The position numbers were made by a program, and so were the translations under genes. From an uncultured virus (IMG/VR IMGVR_UViG_2061766007_000036) (lineage: Duplodnaviria > Heunggongvirae > Uroviricota > Caudoviricetes): 31,751 bases of DNA. Below the pieces are notes generated by a model. The model saw nothing but the letters and a program-made list of their open reading frames with translations, was not told the DNA's origin and made no database searches. The stretch is from IMG/VR virus record IMGVR_UViG_2061766007_000036, one strand, 5' to 3'. The first letter of the stretch is position 1. Each line of letters opens with the position of its first letter. This document shows, in pieces, positions 4,391-30,134 of the stretch.

Positions 4391-4598
4391 CTTCGTCTCC
4401 CTCGTCCGTCACATCCACCGTGTCATCCTGCCTGTACCACACGAACTCTTCGTGTCCGCACCGTGAGCATCTCAGAACCTCTATCGTTACGTTCCTGTAC
4501 CTCTGTACCACGTCATACACGCAAGCATCTAACTCATGCACCCCATCGGGCTTCACCGTCAGCCCCTCGGGCCACTCACACTTCTCCACCGTCAACAC
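4371..4598 (-). CDS. Hypothetical protein with CxxC (start uncertain)
   Basis: ORF track; LRCSRCGHEE. Confidence 0.6.
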   Translation of the reverse strand: MLTVEKCEWPEGLTVKPDGVHELDACVYDVVQRYRNVTIEVLRCSRCGHEEFVWYRQDDTVDVTDEGDEDEGSVD

Positions 4599-4648
4599 CT
4601 CTTACCGTGTGTCAAAGTGTCGGCACATCTATCCCTTGAACTGCCTGT

Positions 4649-4677
4649 ATTATACCACATATTGCGTTCTATGTCAA
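4649..4677 (-). promoter_or_regulatory. sigmaA promoter TTGACA-17-TATAAT
   Basis: Direct reading. Confidence 0.85.
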
Positions 4678-4797
4678 CAACAAATCCTAACGTCGTCGGA
4701 TAGAACGTTTCCTGCACACGCCTTCGACCTCAGATTGAATATCTTGCGCAGGCAAAAAAGAACGCCCCCGATTTCTCGGGGGCTTGTCGTCAGAGGC

Positions 4798-5382
4798 TTA
4801 CGCCACCGTCACGAAGTGGAGTTCGTCCCCTTCCGCACGGAGGAAGTAGAAGCCGTGCTCACGCATTACGTCGCACACGAGCTCCTCGTCGAGGTCGTCG
4901 AGCATCGTGCACACCGTGGCATCGGCGAAGTACACGAAGTTGTCGAACACGGAGAGCATGTAGGAGTTCGTGTTCAGAGCCTCGCAGAGGTCACGCTCTG
5001 CCTCGTTGCAACGGCGGTAGAGTTCCGCCTTGACCTTGGCTTCCGCCTCCGCAATCTCACGCAGTTTGCGGGAACGCTCGCTCTCGTGCTTCACGTACTC
5101 CCCAAGGCTCGGGTCAGCCTTGAGGGCTTCCACCGCATACACGTTGCGGTAGAAGTCGTCGGTCGTCATCCAACCGTTGGCGACTCCGTACGCCTCGTAG
5201 GCTTCCCAAAAGGGACGCACGGACTCGGGCTGTCCCTCGGCACATACCGTGTCGAAGTCACGGCAGTCGAAGTCGTGGGCGAGGTAGCCAATCTCGGCAT
5301 ACGTGCCAACCTCACGGTAGCCCTGCATCTTGGCGACCCACAGGGTCTCGTCGTGAATGGTCTGAAGAGAAATGGTAGTCAT
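4798..5382 (-). CDS. Acidic hypothetical protein, ~194 aa
   Basis: GGAGGT RBS; own promoter 5428-5456 and terminator ~4754-4782. Confidence 0.8.
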   Translation of the reverse strand: MTTISLQTIHDETLWVAKMQGYREVGTYAEIGYLAHDFDCRDFDTVCAEGQPESVRPFWEAYEAYGVANGWMTTDDFYRNVYAVEALKADPSLGEYVKHESERSRKLREIAEAEAKVKAELYRRCNEAERDLCEALNTNSYMLSVFDNFVYFADATVCTMLDDLDEELVCDVMREHGFYFLRAEGDELHFVTVA

Positions 5383-5456: not shown

Positions 5457-5562
5457 CACTTATTTTTAATTTTTTTAAATTTTTTTCGCAGCTCGCAGAC
5501 TGCCTGCGCCCATTGATTGATAATCCCCCAACCCAAAAAATCAGAGGGGCTTTCGCCCCTCC

Positions 5563-5760
5563 TCAGTCGTTGTCCCATCTGTTCCGCAGTTCGGTGTCGT
5601 TCGCCTTAGCCCACTCCTTGAGGTCTCTCAGCGTCTCCGTGTGAGTCCCTGCGCTCCACCTCTCGCCGACATACCGCCCTCTCTCGTCCACGTAGTCCGC
5701 ATTGACGTACCATCCGCCGTACATGCTCTTGCCGTAACTTGCCACATGAATCTTAGTCAT
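5563..5760 (-). CDS. Hypothetical protein, 65 aa
   Basis: AGGAGGT RBS; promoter 5806-5834; terminator 5535-5562. Confidence 0.8.
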   Translation of the reverse strand: MTKIHVASYGKSMYGGWYVNADYVDERGRYVGERWSAGTHTETLRDLKEWAKANDTELRNRWDND

Positions 5761-5805
5761 CTTACGTACCTCCTAAGTAATGTTGTCTCTTTACCTTACG
5801 CTCTA

Positions 5806-6115: not shown

Positions 6116-6357
6116 CAGTCAGCCACCTCCATCTTGTCGCAGTCGGCTTTGCCGAGTCCGCAGAACGCTTTAATGTGCTTGCCCGTGGTCGCCGACCATC
6201 CCCACCAAAGGCGAGTCAGCGAGCCGTCTGCGTTCCTACGCATCACGGGGGTCGTGTAACTCACGAGGGTCTCCGTGCCGTCATCGTCTACGAGCACCCG
6301 TGCCTTGCCGTAGAAACTCTTCTGACTTGTTGTGGGCTTCAGTTCGTATTCTCTCAT
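6115..6357 (-). CDS. Conserved phage hypothetical protein
   Basis: KSFYGKA...LVSYTT...WSATTGKHI motif typical of phage early genes. Confidence 0.8.
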   Translation of the reverse strand: MREYELKPTTSQKSFYGKARVLVDDDGTETLVSYTTPVMRRNADGSLTRLWWGWSATTGKHIKAFCGLGKADCDKMEVAD

Positions 6358-6865: not shown

Positions 6866-6894
6866 ATTGTACCACATATGTACACATATGTCAA
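6866..6894 (-). promoter_or_regulatory. sigmaA promoter TTGACA-17-TACAAT with CATATG-N4-CATATG
   Basis: Direct reading. Confidence 0.85.
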
Positions 6895-7381: not shown

Positions 7382-7410
7382 ATAATACCACATATGTAAC
7401 CATATGTCAA
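7382..7410 (-). promoter_or_regulatory. sigmaA promoter TTGACA-17-TATTAT with CATATG-N4-CATATG
   Basis: Direct reading. Confidence 0.85.
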
Positions 7411-8530: not shown

Positions 8531-8642
8531 GCAAAAATCCTAAAAAATAATTATTTATTTTAAAGTTTTTCCGTCGTGCCTGCGCCTCTCGCCCGCAGAC
8601 GTATGGATTGATAATCCGCCCCGCCTAAAAAAAGATGGGCGC

Positions 8643-14827: not shown

Positions 14828-15157
14828 ATGTTGACCGTAGATTACGAAGTTTTCCGAGAAAGGCTCAGACAGTTACGGGACAGCAAGGGACTGAATTCGC
14901 AGGCGTTGGCAGACTACACCGGTATGTCGGCAGCTGCTATTTCACGCTATCTTAACGGTTCCCGCATCCCCGACATCAACGCTATCCTTACGTTTGCAGA
15001 CTTCTTTGGCGTGCGAGCGGAGTGGATGTTCGGCATCGAACCCGTGGAAAGGTACGAAGATGTGGCAGACGAAGACCGCAAAAGAATCGACCTGTTCAAG
15101 TTGGCTTCCGAAAACGACAAGGCAGTCATCGACTTCATACTGTCGAAGTACAAATGA
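14828..15157 (+). CDS. XRE-family HTH repressor (CI-like)
   Basis: RLRQLRDSKGLNSQALA...AISRYLNGSRIP...ADFFGV; divergent from replication operon; coupled to integrase. Confidence 0.88.
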   Translation: MLTVDYEVFRERLRQLRDSKGLNSQALADYTGMSAAAISRYLNGSRIPDINAILTFADFFGVRAEWMFGIEPVERYEDVADEDRKRIDLFKLASENDKAVIDFILSKYK

Positions 15158-16776
15158 AAGCCGCTATCTACACTCGTGTCTCGACGACCCATCAGATTGA
15201 TAAAGACAGCCTGCGGGTACAGCAGCGGGAGCTGCTACAGTACGCCGAGCTGCTGTTGGGCACAAAGGAGTGCGTGGTGTTTGAGGACGCAGGATTCAGT
15301 GCAAAGAACACAGACCGCCCGAAGTTCCAAGAGATGATGTCCCGCATCCGTGCGGGCGAGTTCACTCACCTGCTTGTGTGGAAGATTGACCGTGTGTCCC
15401 GAAATCTTTTGGACTTCACGAATATGTACGCCGAGTTAAAGGCGTTAGGAGTCACCTTCATCTCGAAGAACGAGCAGTTCGATACGTCGTCCGCCATCGG
15501 CGAGGCAATGTTGAAAATCATACTGGTCTTCGCCGAACTGGAAAGGAACATGACATCCGAACGTGTGACTGCCGTAATGCAGTCCCGAGCCAAGAGCGGA
15601 GCGTGGAATGGGGGTCGTGTCCCCTACGGGTACTCTTACGACAAGGAGACGAAGGAGTTTTCCCTTAACAGACAGGAGTCCCTCGTTGTTAAAAAGTTAT
15701 TTAGGACGTACGAAGCGACCAAGTCCATAATAGCTACTACCCGAAACTTAAACGAAGCAGGAATCCGAACGAGAGCAGGAGCAAGTTGGAGCACCATCGG
15801 AGTTCACAAGATTCTGCGAAACCCATTCTACATCGGAACCTATCGATACAACGTCCACAGCCCGGACGGGAAGCACCCGGAGGAAGAATGGACGTTGATT
15901 GAAAATCATCACGTCCCGCTCATCGAAGCCGCTCAGTTCGACCGAGTCCAGGAAATCTTGTCACGGAACCAGAAGCTCAACCCGGATGACGTTAACTACT
16001 TCTCCCCGCATATCTACATCTTCCACGGGCTGTGTTTCTGCGGACACTGCGGGTCTAAGATGACACCCAACTCGTGCAAGCCCACGAAGTACGGGCATGC
16101 ATCCGCCACCTACGGGTGCGCCAAGAGGCGAAGCAAGGCATCGTATTGTTCTAACCGTTACCTCAACGAAGAAATCCTTGCCGATTTTGTCTTCACCGTC
16201 ATCCACAACTTACTGTCCGTTTCTGCCGAGCCACCGTCAGAAGGCTCTCTGTTCGCCTTACAAAGCCTTTTGCTCAAGGGGGTAAAAGAACCCAAGGGAA
16301 TAGAAGAACGCTCTCTCCGTGCCGTCTATGAAGCCACAGGCGGTAATTCTGCTCCGATAGAGTTCTCTCCTCGCTTTGACGCTTATGACCGTGAGGAATC
16401 CGAAATGCTATCGACCGAGTTGAAACGCACCGAGTCCACGCTCAAGAGGACGAAACGTTTGTACGTGAACGGGGGCATCGACGACGAGGAGTACGCTGCT
16501 CTGACTGAGGCGTTAGACAGTCAGATTGATAATCTGAAGCGGCGTCAGTCCGAGGCTGCTGTTGAAGCCGACGAGTTCCGTGAAAAGGCATCGTACTATT
16601 TGTTGGCAGACATGCTAACGACCGAGCCGTTTAACCCCAAAAAGTTCAACTCCGTCGTGTCCAAGAAAGCGAGAGAGCAGTTCGTACAGCAGGTTATTAA
16701 ACGCTTAATCATCTCCGATGGTCACGTTACCGTGATGGAGTTCCGTAGCGGACTCACGATAGAGTTCAAGTATTAG
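15154..16776 (+). CDS. Large serine recombinase (integrase)
   Basis: AIYTRVST catalytic motif, DRVSR, recombinase domain PYGY, Zn ribbon CGHC...C. Confidence 0.95.
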   Translation: MKAAIYTRVSTTHQIDKDSLRVQQRELLQYAELLLGTKECVVFEDAGFSAKNTDRPKFQEMMSRIRAGEFTHLLVWKIDRVSRNLLDFTNMYAELKALGVTFISKNEQFDTSSAIGEAMLKIILVFAELERNMTSERVTAVMQSRAKSGAWNGGRVPYGYSYDKETKEFSLNRQESLVVKKLFRTYEATKSIIATTRNLNEAGIRTRAGASWSTIGVHKILRNPFYIGTYRYNVHSPDGKHPEEEWTLIENHHVPLIEAAQFDRVQEILSRNQKLNPDDVNYFSPHIYIFHGLCFCGHCGSKMTPNSCKPTKYGHASATYGCAKRRSKASYCSNRYLNEEILADFVFTVIHNLLSVSAEPPSEGSLFALQSLLLKGVKEPKGIEERSLRAVYEATGGNSAPIEFSPRFDAYDREESEMLSTELKRTESTLKRTKRLYVNGGIDDEEYAALTEALDSQIDNLKRRQSEAAVEADEFREKASYYLLADMLTTEPFNPKKFNSVVSKKAREQFVQQVIKRLIISDGHVTVMEFRSGLTIEFKY

Positions 16777-19380: not shown

Positions 19381-19614
19381 TTACCGGGTGTCAATCGAAG
19401 ATTGATAATCCTCATCCGGGACGTACTCGATGAGGTCTTCCACTCTGCACCGTAAGATAGCGCAGAATTTGTTTATCGTGTCCAAGGACACTAACCCACC
19501 ATTCCGCAGATTCTGTATCGACCTTTCCCCGAGTATGTGCTCGTTACGTAATCGTGTAGACGAATACCCCGCTTTCTTCAGTTCCGACAAAACGTTCACC
19601 TTGTAAACAATCAT
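19381..19614 (-). CDS. Cro/C1-type HTH protein
   Basis: IQNLRNG...SLDTINKFCAILRCRVEDLIEYVPD. Confidence 0.85.
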   Translation of the reverse strand: MIVYKVNVLSELKKAGYSSTRLRNEHILGERSIQNLRNGGLVSLDTINKFCAILRCRVEDLIEYVPDEDYQSSIDTR

Positions 19615-19652
19615 TTCTTCCTCCAAAAACACAAAAAACTCTAAAAATAGTG

Positions 19653-19681
19653 TTGACATACACTACATATAGTGTTATAAT
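19653..19681 (+). promoter_or_regulatory. sigmaA promoter TTGACA-17-TATAAT containing inverted repeat ACACTA-N4-TAGTGT
   Basis: Direct reading. Confidence 0.85.
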
Positions 19682-19724
19682 AATAGCGTCAAAAGACAAC
19701 AGAAGGCGAAAGGAAGAGTGAGAC

Positions 19725-19940
19725 ATGAGCGAACTCGAGAAGAGATTACAACGGAACGAAGCGGTAGGCAAAGCACAGGTGAAGGTTTTCCGAATTGAGG
19801 CGTTGGTTGACTTAGTGTCGGACTACCTAACCAACCACGCAAACGAACCGTCAGAGGAACGGTTCGACAAGGTGTCGGATGTGATAGAGGTTGTCTCCGA
19901 AGAGGTAAAGAAACTCGAAGAGATGCTGTTTGACCTGTAA
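19725..19940 (+). CDS. Acidic helical hypothetical protein, 71 aa
   Basis: Follows promoter; terminator ~19946-19973. Confidence 0.75.
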   Translation: MSELEKRLQRNEAVGKAQVKVFRIEALVDLVSDYLTNHANEPSEERFDKVSDVIEVVSEEVKKLEEMLFDL

Positions 19941-19994
19941 GAACAGGGGCGGAGAAATCCGCCCCCTTCTTTTGCGCTTATGCGAGATTGAAAA

Positions 19995-20255
19995 TCACTG
20001 CACCTCTTTGTCCCAGTCGTCAACCGGGGCTCCGATTTCCTTGAACTGTTCTCTCATGAAGTCCTTCATTTCTGCGAAGCGTGAACGGAACTCCGCCAAA
20101 TCCTCGACCGCTGTAACAGAGTCCGCTAATTCTTTGTATGCGCAGGAGTTAAGGTACATGAAGTGGGACAGTCCTCTAACAAACGCCTTCTGTTTTCTCG
20201 AAGACCTCATCAGAGCAAGAACCGCAATCGCAAGTATTGCGACAAGAATCTTCAT
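19995..20255 (-). CDS. Hypothetical protein with N-terminal membrane anchor
   Basis: MKILVAILAIAVLAL; TAATG coupling. Confidence 0.7.
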   Translation of the reverse strand: MKILVAILAIAVLALMRSSRKQKAFVRGLSHFMYLNSCAYKELADSVTAVEDLAEFRSRFAEMKDFMREQFKEIGAPVDDWDKEVQ

Positions 20256-20428
20256 TACCATAGTCCCACCGCCCATCCTACGAGCAGAACATCGGTAAGT
20301 CCGTCATCTTTAGGCTCATACTTAAAACAAATATCATCTGTTCTCAGTCTCTTCTGCTTGCGAACGCAGAAAAGGCTGTCCTTTTTTATCGTGCAATAGC
20401 CGCAATCACGGCAAGTGTATTTCCTCAT
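20255..20428 (-). CDS. Cys-rich hypothetical protein, 57 aa (MRKYTCRDCGYC...), not in ORF track
   Basis: AGGAGG RBS. Confidence 0.65.
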   Translation of the reverse strand: MRKYTCRDCGYCTIKKDSLFCVRKQKRLRTDDICFKYEPKDDGLTDVLLVGWAVGLW

Positions 20429-20446
20429 CAGCATCCTCCTATTGAT

Positions 20447-20567
20447 AATCCCCCGCAGGGGTCTGCGCTACGGTGGGTGTAAGGTAAACAAGACAACAAA
20501 CAACTTTGAAGAGGTACTTCAAGGCGAAAGTGTAGAGACACCATAGCGCAGGCTTCCACAGGGGATT
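20447..20567 (-). ncRNA. Candidate hairpin sRNA with loop antisense to early-gene leader consensus
   Basis: Stems 20556-20567/20447-20459 and 20539-20551/20463-20475 with four G.U pairs on - strand; promoter TTGACT(20600-05)-17-AATAAT(20577-82) directly upstream. Confidence 0.7.
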
Positions 20568-20601
20568 GCCGTTATTATTATTCCCTATTTTATTGATAAA
20601 G

Positions 20602-21132
20602 TCAAGTGACCAAGGGCTCGATTAAGTCCCACACCGTTTTGTCCTCAAGGAACAAGTCCATGTAGTCCTTCGCCTGTCTGACGCTGATTGCCCGTACGAA
20701 GTCCTTGAGTCCCGTGTACTCCTCGTTGTAGTACACAAGGAAGAACTCGTTGTTGTGGTCAAGGTACAGCTCCGTTGCACAGTCGTACTCGTACGTGTCC
20801 TTTCCAACGTCTCCGCAGACGTAGAATGAATCTTCCGTGGAGAACATCCTGCGGTCGTAGACACCTCTTACCTTTCTGAGCATCCCTTTCCGTGCAGGCA
20901 GGAAGAACTTCTTTTTCTCTGTATCGTAGTAGTAAACACGAACTCCGCTAAGCGTCAGAAGGTCGTTGTACTCCTCGGCGGAAACCGTGTGTCTCTTTAT
21001 CTTTCCGTTCAGTTTTTGCGCAGACCACCGTTCCTCGGGGAACGCCTCGTTAGCCTTTTCCGCCAACTCTTTCTGCGTGATGTGCATGCTCTTAAGTAAG
21101 CCTTTAAAAGTGTTCTCTAAATCGAATCTCAT
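20602..21132 (-). CDS. Protein with N-terminal XRE-like HTH
   Basis: ITQKELAEK...WSAQKLNGKIK. Confidence 0.7.
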   Translation of the reverse strand: MRFDLENTFKGLLKSMHITQKELAEKANEAFPEERWSAQKLNGKIKRHTVSAEEYNDLLTLSGVRVYYYDTEKKKFFLPARKGMLRKVRGVYDRRMFSTEDSFYVCGDVGKDTYEYDCATELYLDHNNEFFLVYYNEEYTGLKDFVRAISVRQAKDYMDLFLEDKTVWDLIEPLVT

Positions 21133-21223
21133 CGTATCCCTCCTCTCATTTCTATGTTGCCACAGTCTGGGCGGAATGTCAAGTAATTATCCTACAATCT
21201 ATTGATAATCCGCCGACCGAGGT

Positions 21224-21443: not shown

Positions 21444-21746
21444 TCACGCCCCCTTCCTGTAGTAGCGAATAGCGCTGTAGCAGTCGCTTCCGTCTTCCTC
21501 TGTCACATCCACGCTCACGAGGCTGAAGCCAATCAGACCAAGCACCCAATCGCACCGCAGGTGCTCGTGCTTCCAATCGCCCCAATGAATCTCTACGGAA
21601 ATGTCCTTGGTTCCGTACATCATCGGCTCAGCGTCTCCGTAGACATCGTGCTTGTTCAGAAGCCTCTCGGCTTCCACAGCCATCTCGAACCGTTCATTGA
21701 ACCTCTTGTTCAGTTCGTCTCTATCCATCTCGTACAGGTCAAACAT
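21444..21746 (-). CDS. Conserved phage hypothetical protein
   Basis: VEIHWGDWKHEHLR...EEDGSDCYSA; promoter 21791-21819. Confidence 0.8.
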   Translation of the reverse strand: MFDLYEMDRDELNKRFNERFEMAVEAERLLNKHDVYGDAEPMMYGTKDISVEIHWGDWKHEHLRCDWVLGLIGFSLVSVDVTEEDGSDCYSAIRYYRKGA

Positions 21747-21790
21747 CTCAAAGTCCTCCTTCAAAAGTCTTATTCCCTTACTGCTCTTAA

Positions 21791-21819
21791 ATTATACCAC
21801 ATATATCTACATATGTCAA
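21791..21819 (-). promoter_or_regulatory. sigmaA promoter TTGACA-17-TATAAT
   Basis: Direct reading. Confidence 0.85.
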
Positions 21820-25576: not shown

Positions 25577-26504
25577 ATTTCAGCACCTTCACCTGTTCCA
25601 TGATATCTTTCGTGTACGCTTTCATCTCGTCCTTCCAATCGGATTGATAATCGTACGTCGTGGGCTGCCCGCTTCGAATCCGGTTGACGTAGCCCTCGAG
25701 CAACGGGAAATCTTTCTCGTAGCAGTGGAAGCTATTGACACGATGTACGTATTTCCCGACTCCAACGCCGAGTATCTCCGCCACCCGTTCCTGTAGGATT
25801 GATAATCCGAAGGCGTTCATGAACGTCGCTTTGCACGCATCGTTGCTTCGAAACAGCACGTCGCACTCCAACTTATCATCCCGTATCATAAATTGGATGT
25901 GCTGTAGGCAGGCGGGGTGTTCAGACCCAACGTCTTCTGCGTGCCGAACGTCAATGACCGCTCGCCGTGAGTACGGGTTCCGTCGCAGCTCGTTGATGCA
26001 GAAATCCACCTGGTCGATGTAAATCCCCGATTGATAATCGTAGTTGGTCATACGGTCGTGGTACGTATACGCCCACTTCCCTCGGTAAATCTCGAAATCA
26101 AGGATGCCGTCCAACAGTTCCATTACGTACTGCTGTAACTCACGCTGCCCCCCGATGAACAGCCGGGAAATCCTGGGCTCCGCTGTCGGGTGATTGATAA
26201 TCATGGTCAGCCCGCACTCCTTTTGCAGGCAGTCCCAATCCGGGCAGGGGTAAATCTTACCGTATCGGAGCAGCGCCTCTAACGCCCGATGATAGCCGAT
26301 TGATAATGTTTCCCCGGACACGGCGACCTCCCGCTCCGGGGGCTCGCCTGCGGTCGGGTAGTCTCGGCTAACTATCTCATTGCAATAGTTACAAAATGTA
26401 ACAGAAGGTGACGAAACGGTGACAGAATTTGGGCTTTCCGTCGGGCTCGGCTCCTCACGACGATTTTGTAATTTTTTGTTACGATTTGCGAATAATTTTC
26501 TCAC
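25560..26504 (-). CDS. Thymidylate synthase (ThyA-fold); start uncertain
   Basis: SRRA, HPACLQ catalytic Cys, FRSND..ATFMN, SFHCY. Confidence 0.85.
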   Translation of the reverse strand: MRKLFANRNKKLQNRREEPSPTESPNSVTVSSPSVTFCNYCNEIVSRDYPTAGEPPEREVAVSGETLSIGYHRALEALLRYGKIYPCPDWDCLQKECGLTMIINHPTAEPRISRLFIGGQRELQQYVMELLDGILDFEIYRGKWAYTYHDRMTNYDYQSGIYIDQVDFCINELRRNPYSRRAVIDVRHAEDVGSEHPACLQHIQFMIRDDKLECDVLFRSNDACKATFMNAFGLSILQERVAEILGVGVGKYVHRVNSFHCYEKDFPLLEGYVNRIRSGQPTTYDYQSDWKDEMKAYTKDIMEQVKVLKYGHRD

Positions 26505-26630
26505 GACGACCTCACGACTTTCACGAAAAATTTAACGATTTTTTTACGAATTTTACGACGAAATTTGCGAAAAAATTTACGACGAAAATTACGAATTTCA
26601 CGAAATTTTACGACGAAAAATTCACGAATC
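26455..26630. repeat. Array of (T/C)ACGA units separated by A/T tracts
   Basis: Many ACGA copies at roughly helical spacing. Confidence 0.8.
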
Positions 26631-27316: not shown

Positions 27317-27475
27317 CGATTGAAAAAGATTGGAAATCCTGTCTCTATTGAAAATATTGGAAATAATCTTGATAATCCTAATATTGGAAATCCAAAATAT
27401 TGAAAATCTCAAATATTGAAAATCCAAAATATTGATAATCCGAAGATTGGAAATCTGAATATTGGAAATATTTTC
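27317..27475 (+). repeat. Tandem array of ~11 degenerate copies of the polar motif, (G/T)ATTGRWAAT(C/A)
   Basis: Copies at 27382, 27398, 27414, 27430 (16-bp period), 27445, 27460 and upstream. Confidence 0.9.
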
Positions 27476-30059: not shown

Positions 30060-30134
30060 TGGAGCCACTGACAGGATTTGAACCTGTAACCTATCGCTTA
30101 CAAGGCGATTGCACTGCCGTTGTGCTACAATGGC
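30060..30134 (-). tRNA. tRNA-Thr (anticodon UGU) with encoded CCA
   Basis: Acceptor GCCATTG/CAGTGGC, anticodon arm ATCGC-CTTGTAA-GCGAT, T arm ACAGG-TTCAAAT-CCTGT. Confidence 0.9.

Follow-up and report, generated by a model that had tools for sequence, protein, structure and literature searches.

The window analysed here, i.e. the whole stretch of 31,751 nucleotides, is, to judge from its sequence, part of a temperate phage or prophage of the Bacillota type that occurs in cattle-gut metagenomes. A serine integrase is encoded at 15022-16776 (+), and the window also encodes DnaD- and DnaC-like replication proteins, Erf, a Gam-like protein and SSB. The best relatives of the replisome organiser are found in phages of Brochothrix, Streptococcus and Bacillus, at 30-46% identity. 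The minus strand carries nearly all of the genes of the window, including all of the neighbours of the element described below. A tRNA-Thr gene (anticodon TGT) is situated in the phage region at 30060-30134 (-).

Genes surrounding the element

The element lies in a gap of 167 nt between two genes of the minus strand. The upstream gene, P0001 (20602-21132 (-)), encodes a protein of 176 aa that belongs to phrog_38278. The downstream gene, P0002 (20255-20434 (-)), encodes a protein of 57-59 aa with a CxxC...C pattern; from the spacing of its Shine-Dalgarno sequence, the ATG at 20428 is the likely start. The end of P0002 is overlapped by P0003 (19995-20276 (-)), which encodes a protein of 93 aa with a hydrophobic N-terminus. 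No function is assigned to P0001, P0002 or P0003 by Pfam or PHROGs.

The P0001-P0003 operon is approached from the other side by a lone plus strand unit (19653-19965), which converges on it and consists of a consensus promoter at 19653-19681, an ORF of 71 aa at 19725-19940 and a palindromic terminator at 19946-19965. A Cro/C1-type HTH gene (19381-19614 (-)) diverges from this unit, and the region 19381-19965 as a whole has the appearance of a genetic switch.

Five protein relatives of P0001 were found, at 66-98% identity, and a metagenome scan provided the DNA of two of them, L002 and L003. L002 is a metagenome locus with the same gene order, in which P0001 is 76% identical and the homologue of P0002 is located at 4667-4846. 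Near-identical DNA was found in contigs of four runs (one gut metagenome, one unlabelled and two coded organisms); the run comparison covers 601 nt around the element in these four of the 22 listed runs. No RNA run was among the 22.

Structure of the stem-loop

The whole element occupies 20447-20567 (-) and comprises 121 nt, i.e. a 5' arm (20539-20567 (-)), a loop of 63 nt and a 3' arm (20447-20475 (-)). When the minus strand of 20440-20575 was folded, a minimum free energy of -48.3 kcal/mol was obtained, with a z score of -5.09, and none of 200 shuffled sequences matched that value. The stem consists of 26 pairs, arranged as 12 + 1 + 13 with small internal loops. Its two main parts join 20556-20567 to 20448-20459 (12 pairs) and 20539-20551 to 20463-20475 (13 pairs), and these are the pairings that had been claimed in a preliminary description of the locus. 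For double-strand RNases of the RNase III type, a double-stranded stem of at least about 20 pairs is the rule, and the stem of the element is longer than that. The last 22 nt of the loop form the block GUUGUCUUGUUUACCUUACACC (20476-20497 (-)), which is antisense to the 5' end (GTAAGGTAAACAAGACAAC) of the leaders considered in the next section. A small inner hairpin (20504-20524 (-)) is present in the predicted folds, and an anti-Shine-Dalgarno sequence, ACCUCUU (20509-20515), lies at its tip.

The minus strand fold of the window contains six G.U pairs, four of them in the two main stems, and that of L002 contains four; three of these pairs occupy places common to the two sequences. It had been claimed that the four pairs form only on the minus strand. 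In the shared register this is correct, as all of the minus strand G.U pairs of the window and of L002 become A.C on the plus strand. The claim does not extend to stability, as the plus strand refolds in another register, with an energy of -47.8 kcal/mol (z -3.8) in the window. In L002 the energies are -50.8 for the minus strand and -50.5 for the plus strand, the latter with a z score of -5.4. Folding energy cannot, therefore, choose between the strands, since the plus strand fold in the other register is nearly equal in energy, and the case for the minus strand derives from gene orientation.

Several other identities were considered for the hairpin. An intrinsic terminator is not indicated, as the loop is 63 nt long (such terminators have 3-8 nt), no T-run is present on the minus strand and the structure was not called by the terminator scan. 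A miniature inverted-repeat mobile element was likewise rejected: the arm sequence occurs once in the window (at up to three mismatches) and once in L002 and, because the arms are single copy, the structure is not a repeated mobile element. With regard to coding, an open frame crosses the hairpin on the minus strand (43 aa in the window and 40 aa in L002), but it differs in frame between the two phages and is broken by indels of 4 and 7 nt between them. On the plus strand only a GTG-TAG follows the GAGG, and the plus strand frames of the window and L002 do not correspond. A search of the whole window against Rfam at the gathering score returned the tRNA only, and cmscan of 20380-20660 at E values up to 10 returned three chance-level hits, none of them to C4.

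The cassette leaders and their inverted copy

Approximately 15 consensus promoters of the form TTGACA-17-TGnTATAAT are found on the minus strand, each of which drives a small gene via a leader of about 45 nt. The leaders have the form GTAAGG/GTAAACAAGA...CTTTGAAGGAGGACTT...ATG, and many of the cassettes close with a hairpin-plus-T-run terminator. The host-type promoters suggest that the cassette genes are early genes. The spacers of the cassette promoters are also conserved (CATATG...CATATGTGG), for example at 21791-21819, 7382-7410 and 6866-6894; this conservation in near-identical cassette promoters suggests a shared operator inside the promoter.

The loop of the element is an inverted, promoter-less and start-less copy of the leader shared by the cassettes. 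The copy reads in the sense direction on the plus strand, at 20479-20517, and it spans from the start of the leaders, after the -10 hexamer, to just past the GAGG. Because the leader is repeated in the sense direction on the plus strand of the loop, an RNA from the minus strand would be antisense to the leaders of the minus strand genes. At the copy itself the plus strand has no consensus promoter at 20430-20478 and no start codon after the GAGG, where only the GTG-TAG mentioned above is found.

The likeness was assessed in several ways. The sequence GTAAGGTAAACAA has an exact 13-nt match at 937-949, on the opposite (-) strand, and matches with two mismatches at 5787, 6847 and 24051, all of them on the minus strand. 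At up to two mismatches there were five matches in total, as against 0.63 expected. These results substantiate the claim that the loop is antisense to the shared cassette leader, including the 13-nt match, and the leaders cited as examples (gene starts 920, 2116, 5382, 5760, 6357, 6819, 7871, 22136 and 24024) were all recovered. A profile of 17 leaders, constructed without the copy, was also used in an nhmmer search. The match to 20477-20521 (+), over model positions 6-47, was weak (E 0.37, 7.6 bits), but it was the only plus strand match in the window to cover most of the model. The description of the copy as essentially the consensus of the leaders was too strong: when the 18 sequences are ordered by mean matches, the copy comes 9th and is thus an ordinary member of the family. 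It reads AAGAGG where the leaders have AAGGAGG, which produces a bulge at the Shine-Dalgarno sequence in the duplex. The leader block itself varies in sequence among the cassettes.

Conservation of the element

A homologous element is present in L002 at 4545-4654, with a z score of -7.04. The 5' arm is identical to that of L002 at 25 of 29 positions, with each change matched in the 3' arm, and the 3' arm is identical at 26 of 29, its three changes being compensatory; all seven arm changes preserve pairing. RNAalifold, applied to the window and L002, returned 33 pairs, of which four were changed on both sides and kept, one was changed on one side (U.G to C-G) and none was broken. Three of the double changes lie in the inner stem and one, a change from G-C to A-U, in the small inner hairpin. 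This covariation is limited to two sequences, because there is only one diverged homologue, and it agrees with the stem as originally proposed, as does the conservation of the arms.

Nucleotide identities between the window and L002 were 75.5% for P0001, 69% for P0002 and 74% for P0003, and 39 of 83 fourfold synonymous sites were identical (47%). The last 22 nt of the loop (20476-20497), by comparison, were identical at all 22 positions (binomial P 6e-8). From this block through the 3' arm to the start of P0002 identity continued without a break, at 65 of 69 positions, and three of the four changes were the compensated stem changes; the linker from the stem to the P0002 start was identical at 17 of 18. 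The conserved parts of the loop are those complementary to the 5' end and the Shine-Dalgarno sequence of the leaders. Not conserved are the first 14 nt of the loop, which match no part of the leader, and a middle piece of 7 nt. Orthologous leaders of the window and L002 were 58-77% identical. That the segment might be a decaying relic of a plus strand leader is excluded, because identities of 22/22 and 65/69 stand against a neutral identity of 47%.

The contigs of the four runs contain no listed change within 20430-20570, even though all 37 changes of run X20 fall in the remainder of the 601 nt. Run X6 has six changes without listed positions, and variation among the runs is patchy. The runs are not independent of one another, because X6 and X20 have most of their changes in common. 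In X20, 25 of the 37 differences are packed into approximately 93 nt (20288-20380), across the overlap of P0002 and P0003, and this clustering suggests a patch acquired by recombination more than evenly spread divergence.

The element is not universal. In L003, in which P0001 is 68% identical, the 78 nt available after P0001 (L003 1790-1868) contain a terminator-like hairpin and a new TTGACA promoter, and no hairpin element of the present type; the module after P0001 is, therefore, exchangeable. Scans of viral contig collections yielded no relative of the element region, and blastn of 20200-20900 against phage records yielded no match. A scan of genome contigs yielded only a 31%-identical relative of P0001, which has no bearing on the element. 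Taken together, these sequence comparisons indicate that the element is real and under selection, and that its leader-complementary blocks are under strong sequence constraint.

Predicted pairing of the loop with start regions

Pairing was calculated between the loop and 53 start regions of the minus strand (-50 to +12), which were picked by Shine-Dalgarno sequence and ORF length. Dinucleotide-preserving shuffles of the loop served as the control. By duplex energy, 12 of the 53 start regions reached -35 kcal/mol or lower, whereas for 150 shuffled loops the number averaged 1.0 and never exceeded 5; for the start regions of the phage, the proposed pairing thus stands out from shuffled controls. 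With the addition of rough opening costs for both partners, 15 of the 53 reached -15 or lower, as against 3.6 (maximum 9) in 30 shuffles. In RNAcofold, in which the stem must open, six of the 53 reached -8 kcal/mol or lower, as against 0.5 in 20 shuffles. RNAcofold energies understate loop pairing, because a partner cannot be placed inside a closed loop, and duplex energy plus opening costs was used in place of them.

The best 14 start regions by the opening-cost score all have leader-family sequence, and 12 of them lie directly behind a consensus promoter; the other two (gene starts 920 and 7239) have longer leaders. An example of a predicted target is the leader at 5761-5805 (-), of the gene that starts at 5760. 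Its duplex energy with the loop is -43.8 kcal/mol, which was reached by none of the 150 shuffled loops, and -27.5 kcal/mol remain when opening costs are included. The other predicted targets are the leaders of the genes starting at 6357, 6819, 2116, 920, 7239, 7871, 5382, 18877, 24024, 17934, 22136, 8454 and 21746. Two starts within the operon itself, at 21132 and 20428, paired with the loop at the level of the shuffles.

The loop of L002 gave -29 to -36.5 on the cassette leaders of its own phage, as against -14 to -24 on other starts. It had been suggested that the leaders co-evolved with the loop. No such co-variation was observed between the window and L002: the loop of the window scores as well on the L002 leaders as does the loop of L002, and co-evolution is, for that reason, not supported. 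The antisense relation to approximately 14 leaders, taken as predicted complementarity, is real and selective.

Proposed transcript containing the element

In the preliminary description, the element was a discrete sRNA of approximately 125 nt with its own promoter. The promoter-like site, TTGACT-17-AATAAT (20577-20605 (-)), is indeed present. It matches the consensus at 10 of 12 positions, and its -35 hexamer overlaps the stop codon of P0001. Sites of this kind are, however, at chance level, with three in 3 kb as against 3.2 in shuffles, and the cassette promoters of the phage have a TG-extended -10 and a conserved spacer that are both missing here. It also cannot be aligned with L002, in which the 34-nt flank that contains it is replaced by 10 unrelated nt between the stop codon and the stem. 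At the other end, the scan of the minus strand at 20430-20460 found no terminator-like site. The stem is followed by AUUAUCAAUAGGAGG; its 3' foot runs, without a T-run, into the AUUAUCAAU-AGGAGG-N6-AUG of P0002. The promoter claimed for the sRNA thus exists as a sequence match, and the discrete transcription unit built upon it is not upheld.

The nearest strong minus strand promoter upstream of the hairpin is a consensus promoter, TTGACA-17-TGnTATAAT, at 21791-21819 (-). Its leader (21747-21790; the first gene of the operon starts at 21746) is itself a member of the predicted target family, and no terminator-like site was found on the minus strand between 21819 and the hairpin. A degenerate cassette promoter, TTGACA-17-CAACAT, was read by eye before P0001, at 21154-21182 (-), and was not called by the scan. 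In view of the chance-level promoter, the unalignable flank in L002 and the lack of a terminator before or after the hairpin, the element is most simply taken as part of the operon message.

A co-oriented motif at the foot of the stem

The last bases of the 3' arm enter a copy of the motif ATTATCAAT (20441-20449 (-)), located at the 3' foot of the stem, beyond which lie AGGAGG (20435-20440) and the ATG at 20428. The motif (in extended form approximately GGATTATCAATC) occurs 32 times in the window, always on the minus strand, as against 0.15 expected. Further copies are found, for example, at 5516-5524 and 8607-8615, and five are found within 25643-26307. Many of them follow a terminator, a T-run and approximately 10 G-rich nt, and lie 55-76 nt before the next promoter; others lie within coding sequence. 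The bias to one strand is also seen in L002 (6/6) and L003 (1/1). A tandem array at 27365-27469, with a 16-nt unit in 6.8 copies, consists of variants of ATTATCAAT and is iteron-like; a second array, at 26546-26594, has a 12-nt unit in 4.1 copies. A literature search for ATTATCAAT returned primers and unrelated matches only. The motif may serve as a polar site in DNA or as a signal in RNA.

Interpretation and alternatives

The reading that we favour, with a probability of approximately 0.4, is that the P0001-P0002 operon transcript contains the element as an anti-leader RNA, which may be trimmed from it; such an RNA would resemble c4 but act on many transcripts. Its basis is the structure, the compensatory conservation, the constraint on the leader blocks and the selective complementarity to leaders; that the RNA is transcribed and processed, that it pairs in the cell and which way it regulates are inferred. 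By this hypothesis, the minus strand of 20447-20567, between P0001 and P0002, would give rise to a conserved, structured RNA. Its transcription would begin, with that of the operon, at the promoter at 21819, at the weak promoter preceding P0001 or at both, and trimming may follow at the long stem. The stem of about 26 pairs would keep the 63-nt loop open, and the loop, in which the approximately 45 nt of the leader from transcript start to Shine-Dalgarno sequence are repeated in inverted orientation, would pair with the leaders of approximately 14 cassette messages and cover their 5' end and ribosome-binding site. Such pairing would lower translation of the cassettes or expose their messages to double-strand RNases. 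Of the results given above, the restriction of covariation to two sequences, the L003 arrangement, the near-equal folding energies of the strands, the ordinary rank of the copy with its Shine-Dalgarno bulge, the lack of loop-leader co-variation and the unplaced changes of X6 weigh against the hypothesis. In addition, a single anti-leader would presumably face some 14 messages driven by consensus promoters, which raises a problem of stoichiometry, and topology restricts how far a long duplex can form within a loop that is closed.

More tentative still is the full form of this hypothesis, in which one operon-embedded RNA with a complete inverted leader serves approximately 14 separate messages and is an RNA counterpart of RegA and RegB of phage T4. 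The 22-nt block would then be held fixed by the need to fit many partners. A search of open-access full-text literature found no described RNA aimed at the shared leader of many phage transcription units, and the portions available of a review of phage sRNAs describe no equivalent (PMC12197685).

The alternative that survives best, although we consider it unlikely, is a cis-acting element of the P0001-P0002-P0003 message, i.e. a processing site of the RNase III type, a 5' stabiliser or a control of P0002 translation. The likeness of the loop to the leaders would then be an accident of ancestry, or the loop would act in the reverse direction, as a sensor for abundant leader RNAs that sets the expression of P0002 and P0003. 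The position of the element fits such a role: it lies inside an operon without a conserved promoter or terminator of its own, the ribosome-binding site of P0002 begins 8 nt after the stem, and the most conserved stretch (65/69) runs unbroken from the 3' block of the loop through the 3' arm to the P0002 start. The 26 pairs are long enough for double-strand RNases and, with some 15 consensus promoters, leader RNAs should far outnumber the element. A purely structural role, however, leaves unexplained the 22/22 identity of a leader-complementary block that is predicted to be unpaired, and the start region of P0002 has no special pairing to the loop. A cis role of the stem is nevertheless plausible, and the stem could have it alongside a trans role.

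A feature of the DNA with no role as RNA is less probable than that. It might be an inverted-repeat protein site, a further copy, inverted, of a promoter-proximal operator present also in the leaders, or the remnant of an inverted cassette in a palindrome. By sequence the loop is a plus strand leader copy, folding is equal on both strands, and the element adjoins one of the 32 co-oriented ATTATCAAT motifs, which resemble a DNA site and recur in the 16-nt array at 27365-27469; a DNA-binding protein could, in principle, recognise the GTAAGGTAAACAAGA block in either orientation. The conservation described above is, on the other hand, incompatible with a relic (22/22 and 65/69 against 47% neutral identity), and compensatory changes over 26 pairs, together with three conserved G.U pairs, are more readily explained by a single-stranded fold than by a site in duplex DNA. 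In addition, the single-copy arms are not those of a repeated mobile element, and the leader block is too variable among cassettes to make a good operator.

An independent sRNA gene of approximately 125 nt, starting near 20570 from TTGACT-17-AATAAT and ending at the stem foot, is more doubtful again. Its promoter-like site has the correct spacing as well as the 10/12 match, and it is kept in the four near-identical variants, in which the only listed changes nearby are at 20571 and 20572. Against this stand the chance frequency of such sites (3 against 3.2 expected), the absence of a TG-extended -10 and of the spacer conserved in the promoters of the phage, the L002 sequence, in which 10 unrelated nt replace the 34-nt flank so that the stem follows almost directly after the stop codon, and the lack of a T-run or terminator after the stem, which leads straight into AGGAGG-ATG. 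An active plus strand, yielding an RNA with the sense leader and ribosome-binding site in its loop as a decoy for a leader-binding factor or ribosomes, is very improbable, for although the fold of that strand is almost as good (z -3.8 and -5.4) and a consensus promoter is present on it at 19653-19681, the unit of that promoter ends at the terminator at 19946-19965, some 480 nt before the element, no plus strand promoter or ORF is found at the element, and the conserved wobble pairs become A.C mismatches in the shared register.

If the operon-embedded anti-leader RNA is correct, it would account for the persistent similarity of the leaders among small genes that are otherwise unrelated. The element is small and has both a clear predicted seed (the 22-nt block and the anti-Shine-Dalgarno sequence) and predicted targets, so that the idea is directly testable.

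Comparison with known systems

RNase III processing hairpins are situated between early genes of T7 and of the Bacillus phage SP82, and these, like the present element, are long imperfect intercistronic stems in an early polycistronic message. To our knowledge, they do not carry a loop complementary to other early leaders. The sar RNA of P22, a small antisense RNA, masks the ribosome-binding site of a message of the phage, and the masking of ribosome-binding sites proposed for the loop is of the same kind. The sar RNA is, however, cis-encoded opposite a single target, whereas the predicted targets of the element are dispersed and partly complementary.

The closest mechanistic likeness is to c4, which is cut out of its operon transcript; the Rfam C4 family also holds the P4 CI RNA. 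As outlined in the review cited above, c4 of P1/P7 is a structured phage RNA within an operon, loop segments of which pair around a ribosome-binding site and block translation (PMC12197685). On that outline, the element shares with c4 its location in an operon, its structure and a loop complementary to the ribosome-binding region of phage messages, a likeness of mechanism only. The two differ in the number of targets, a single message (ant) of the same operon for c4 as against approximately 14 separate units matched by the loop of the element; in the complementary sequence, two short segments in c4 as against a full-length inverted leader of about 45 nt in the element; and in host type, which is enterobacterial for c4 and Bacillota-like for the element. 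As no Rfam family matches at E values up to 10, the element is not a member of the Rfam C4 family.

In its proposed role, the element is most similar to two proteins of T4, namely RegB, which cleaves the GGAG of early Shine-Dalgarno sequences, and RegA, which binds at numerous start regions (PMC3014915). As portrayed there, a single phage factor inactivates many early messages at their initiation regions, which is the role proposed for the element; the difference is that RegA and RegB are proteins, and the element would be an RNA acting by base pairing. If this is true, a single RNA directed at the shared leader of many units would combine two known means of phage regulation, the shutoff of sets of early genes by proteins (RegA, RegB) and the control of single genes by antisense RNAs (c4, sar).
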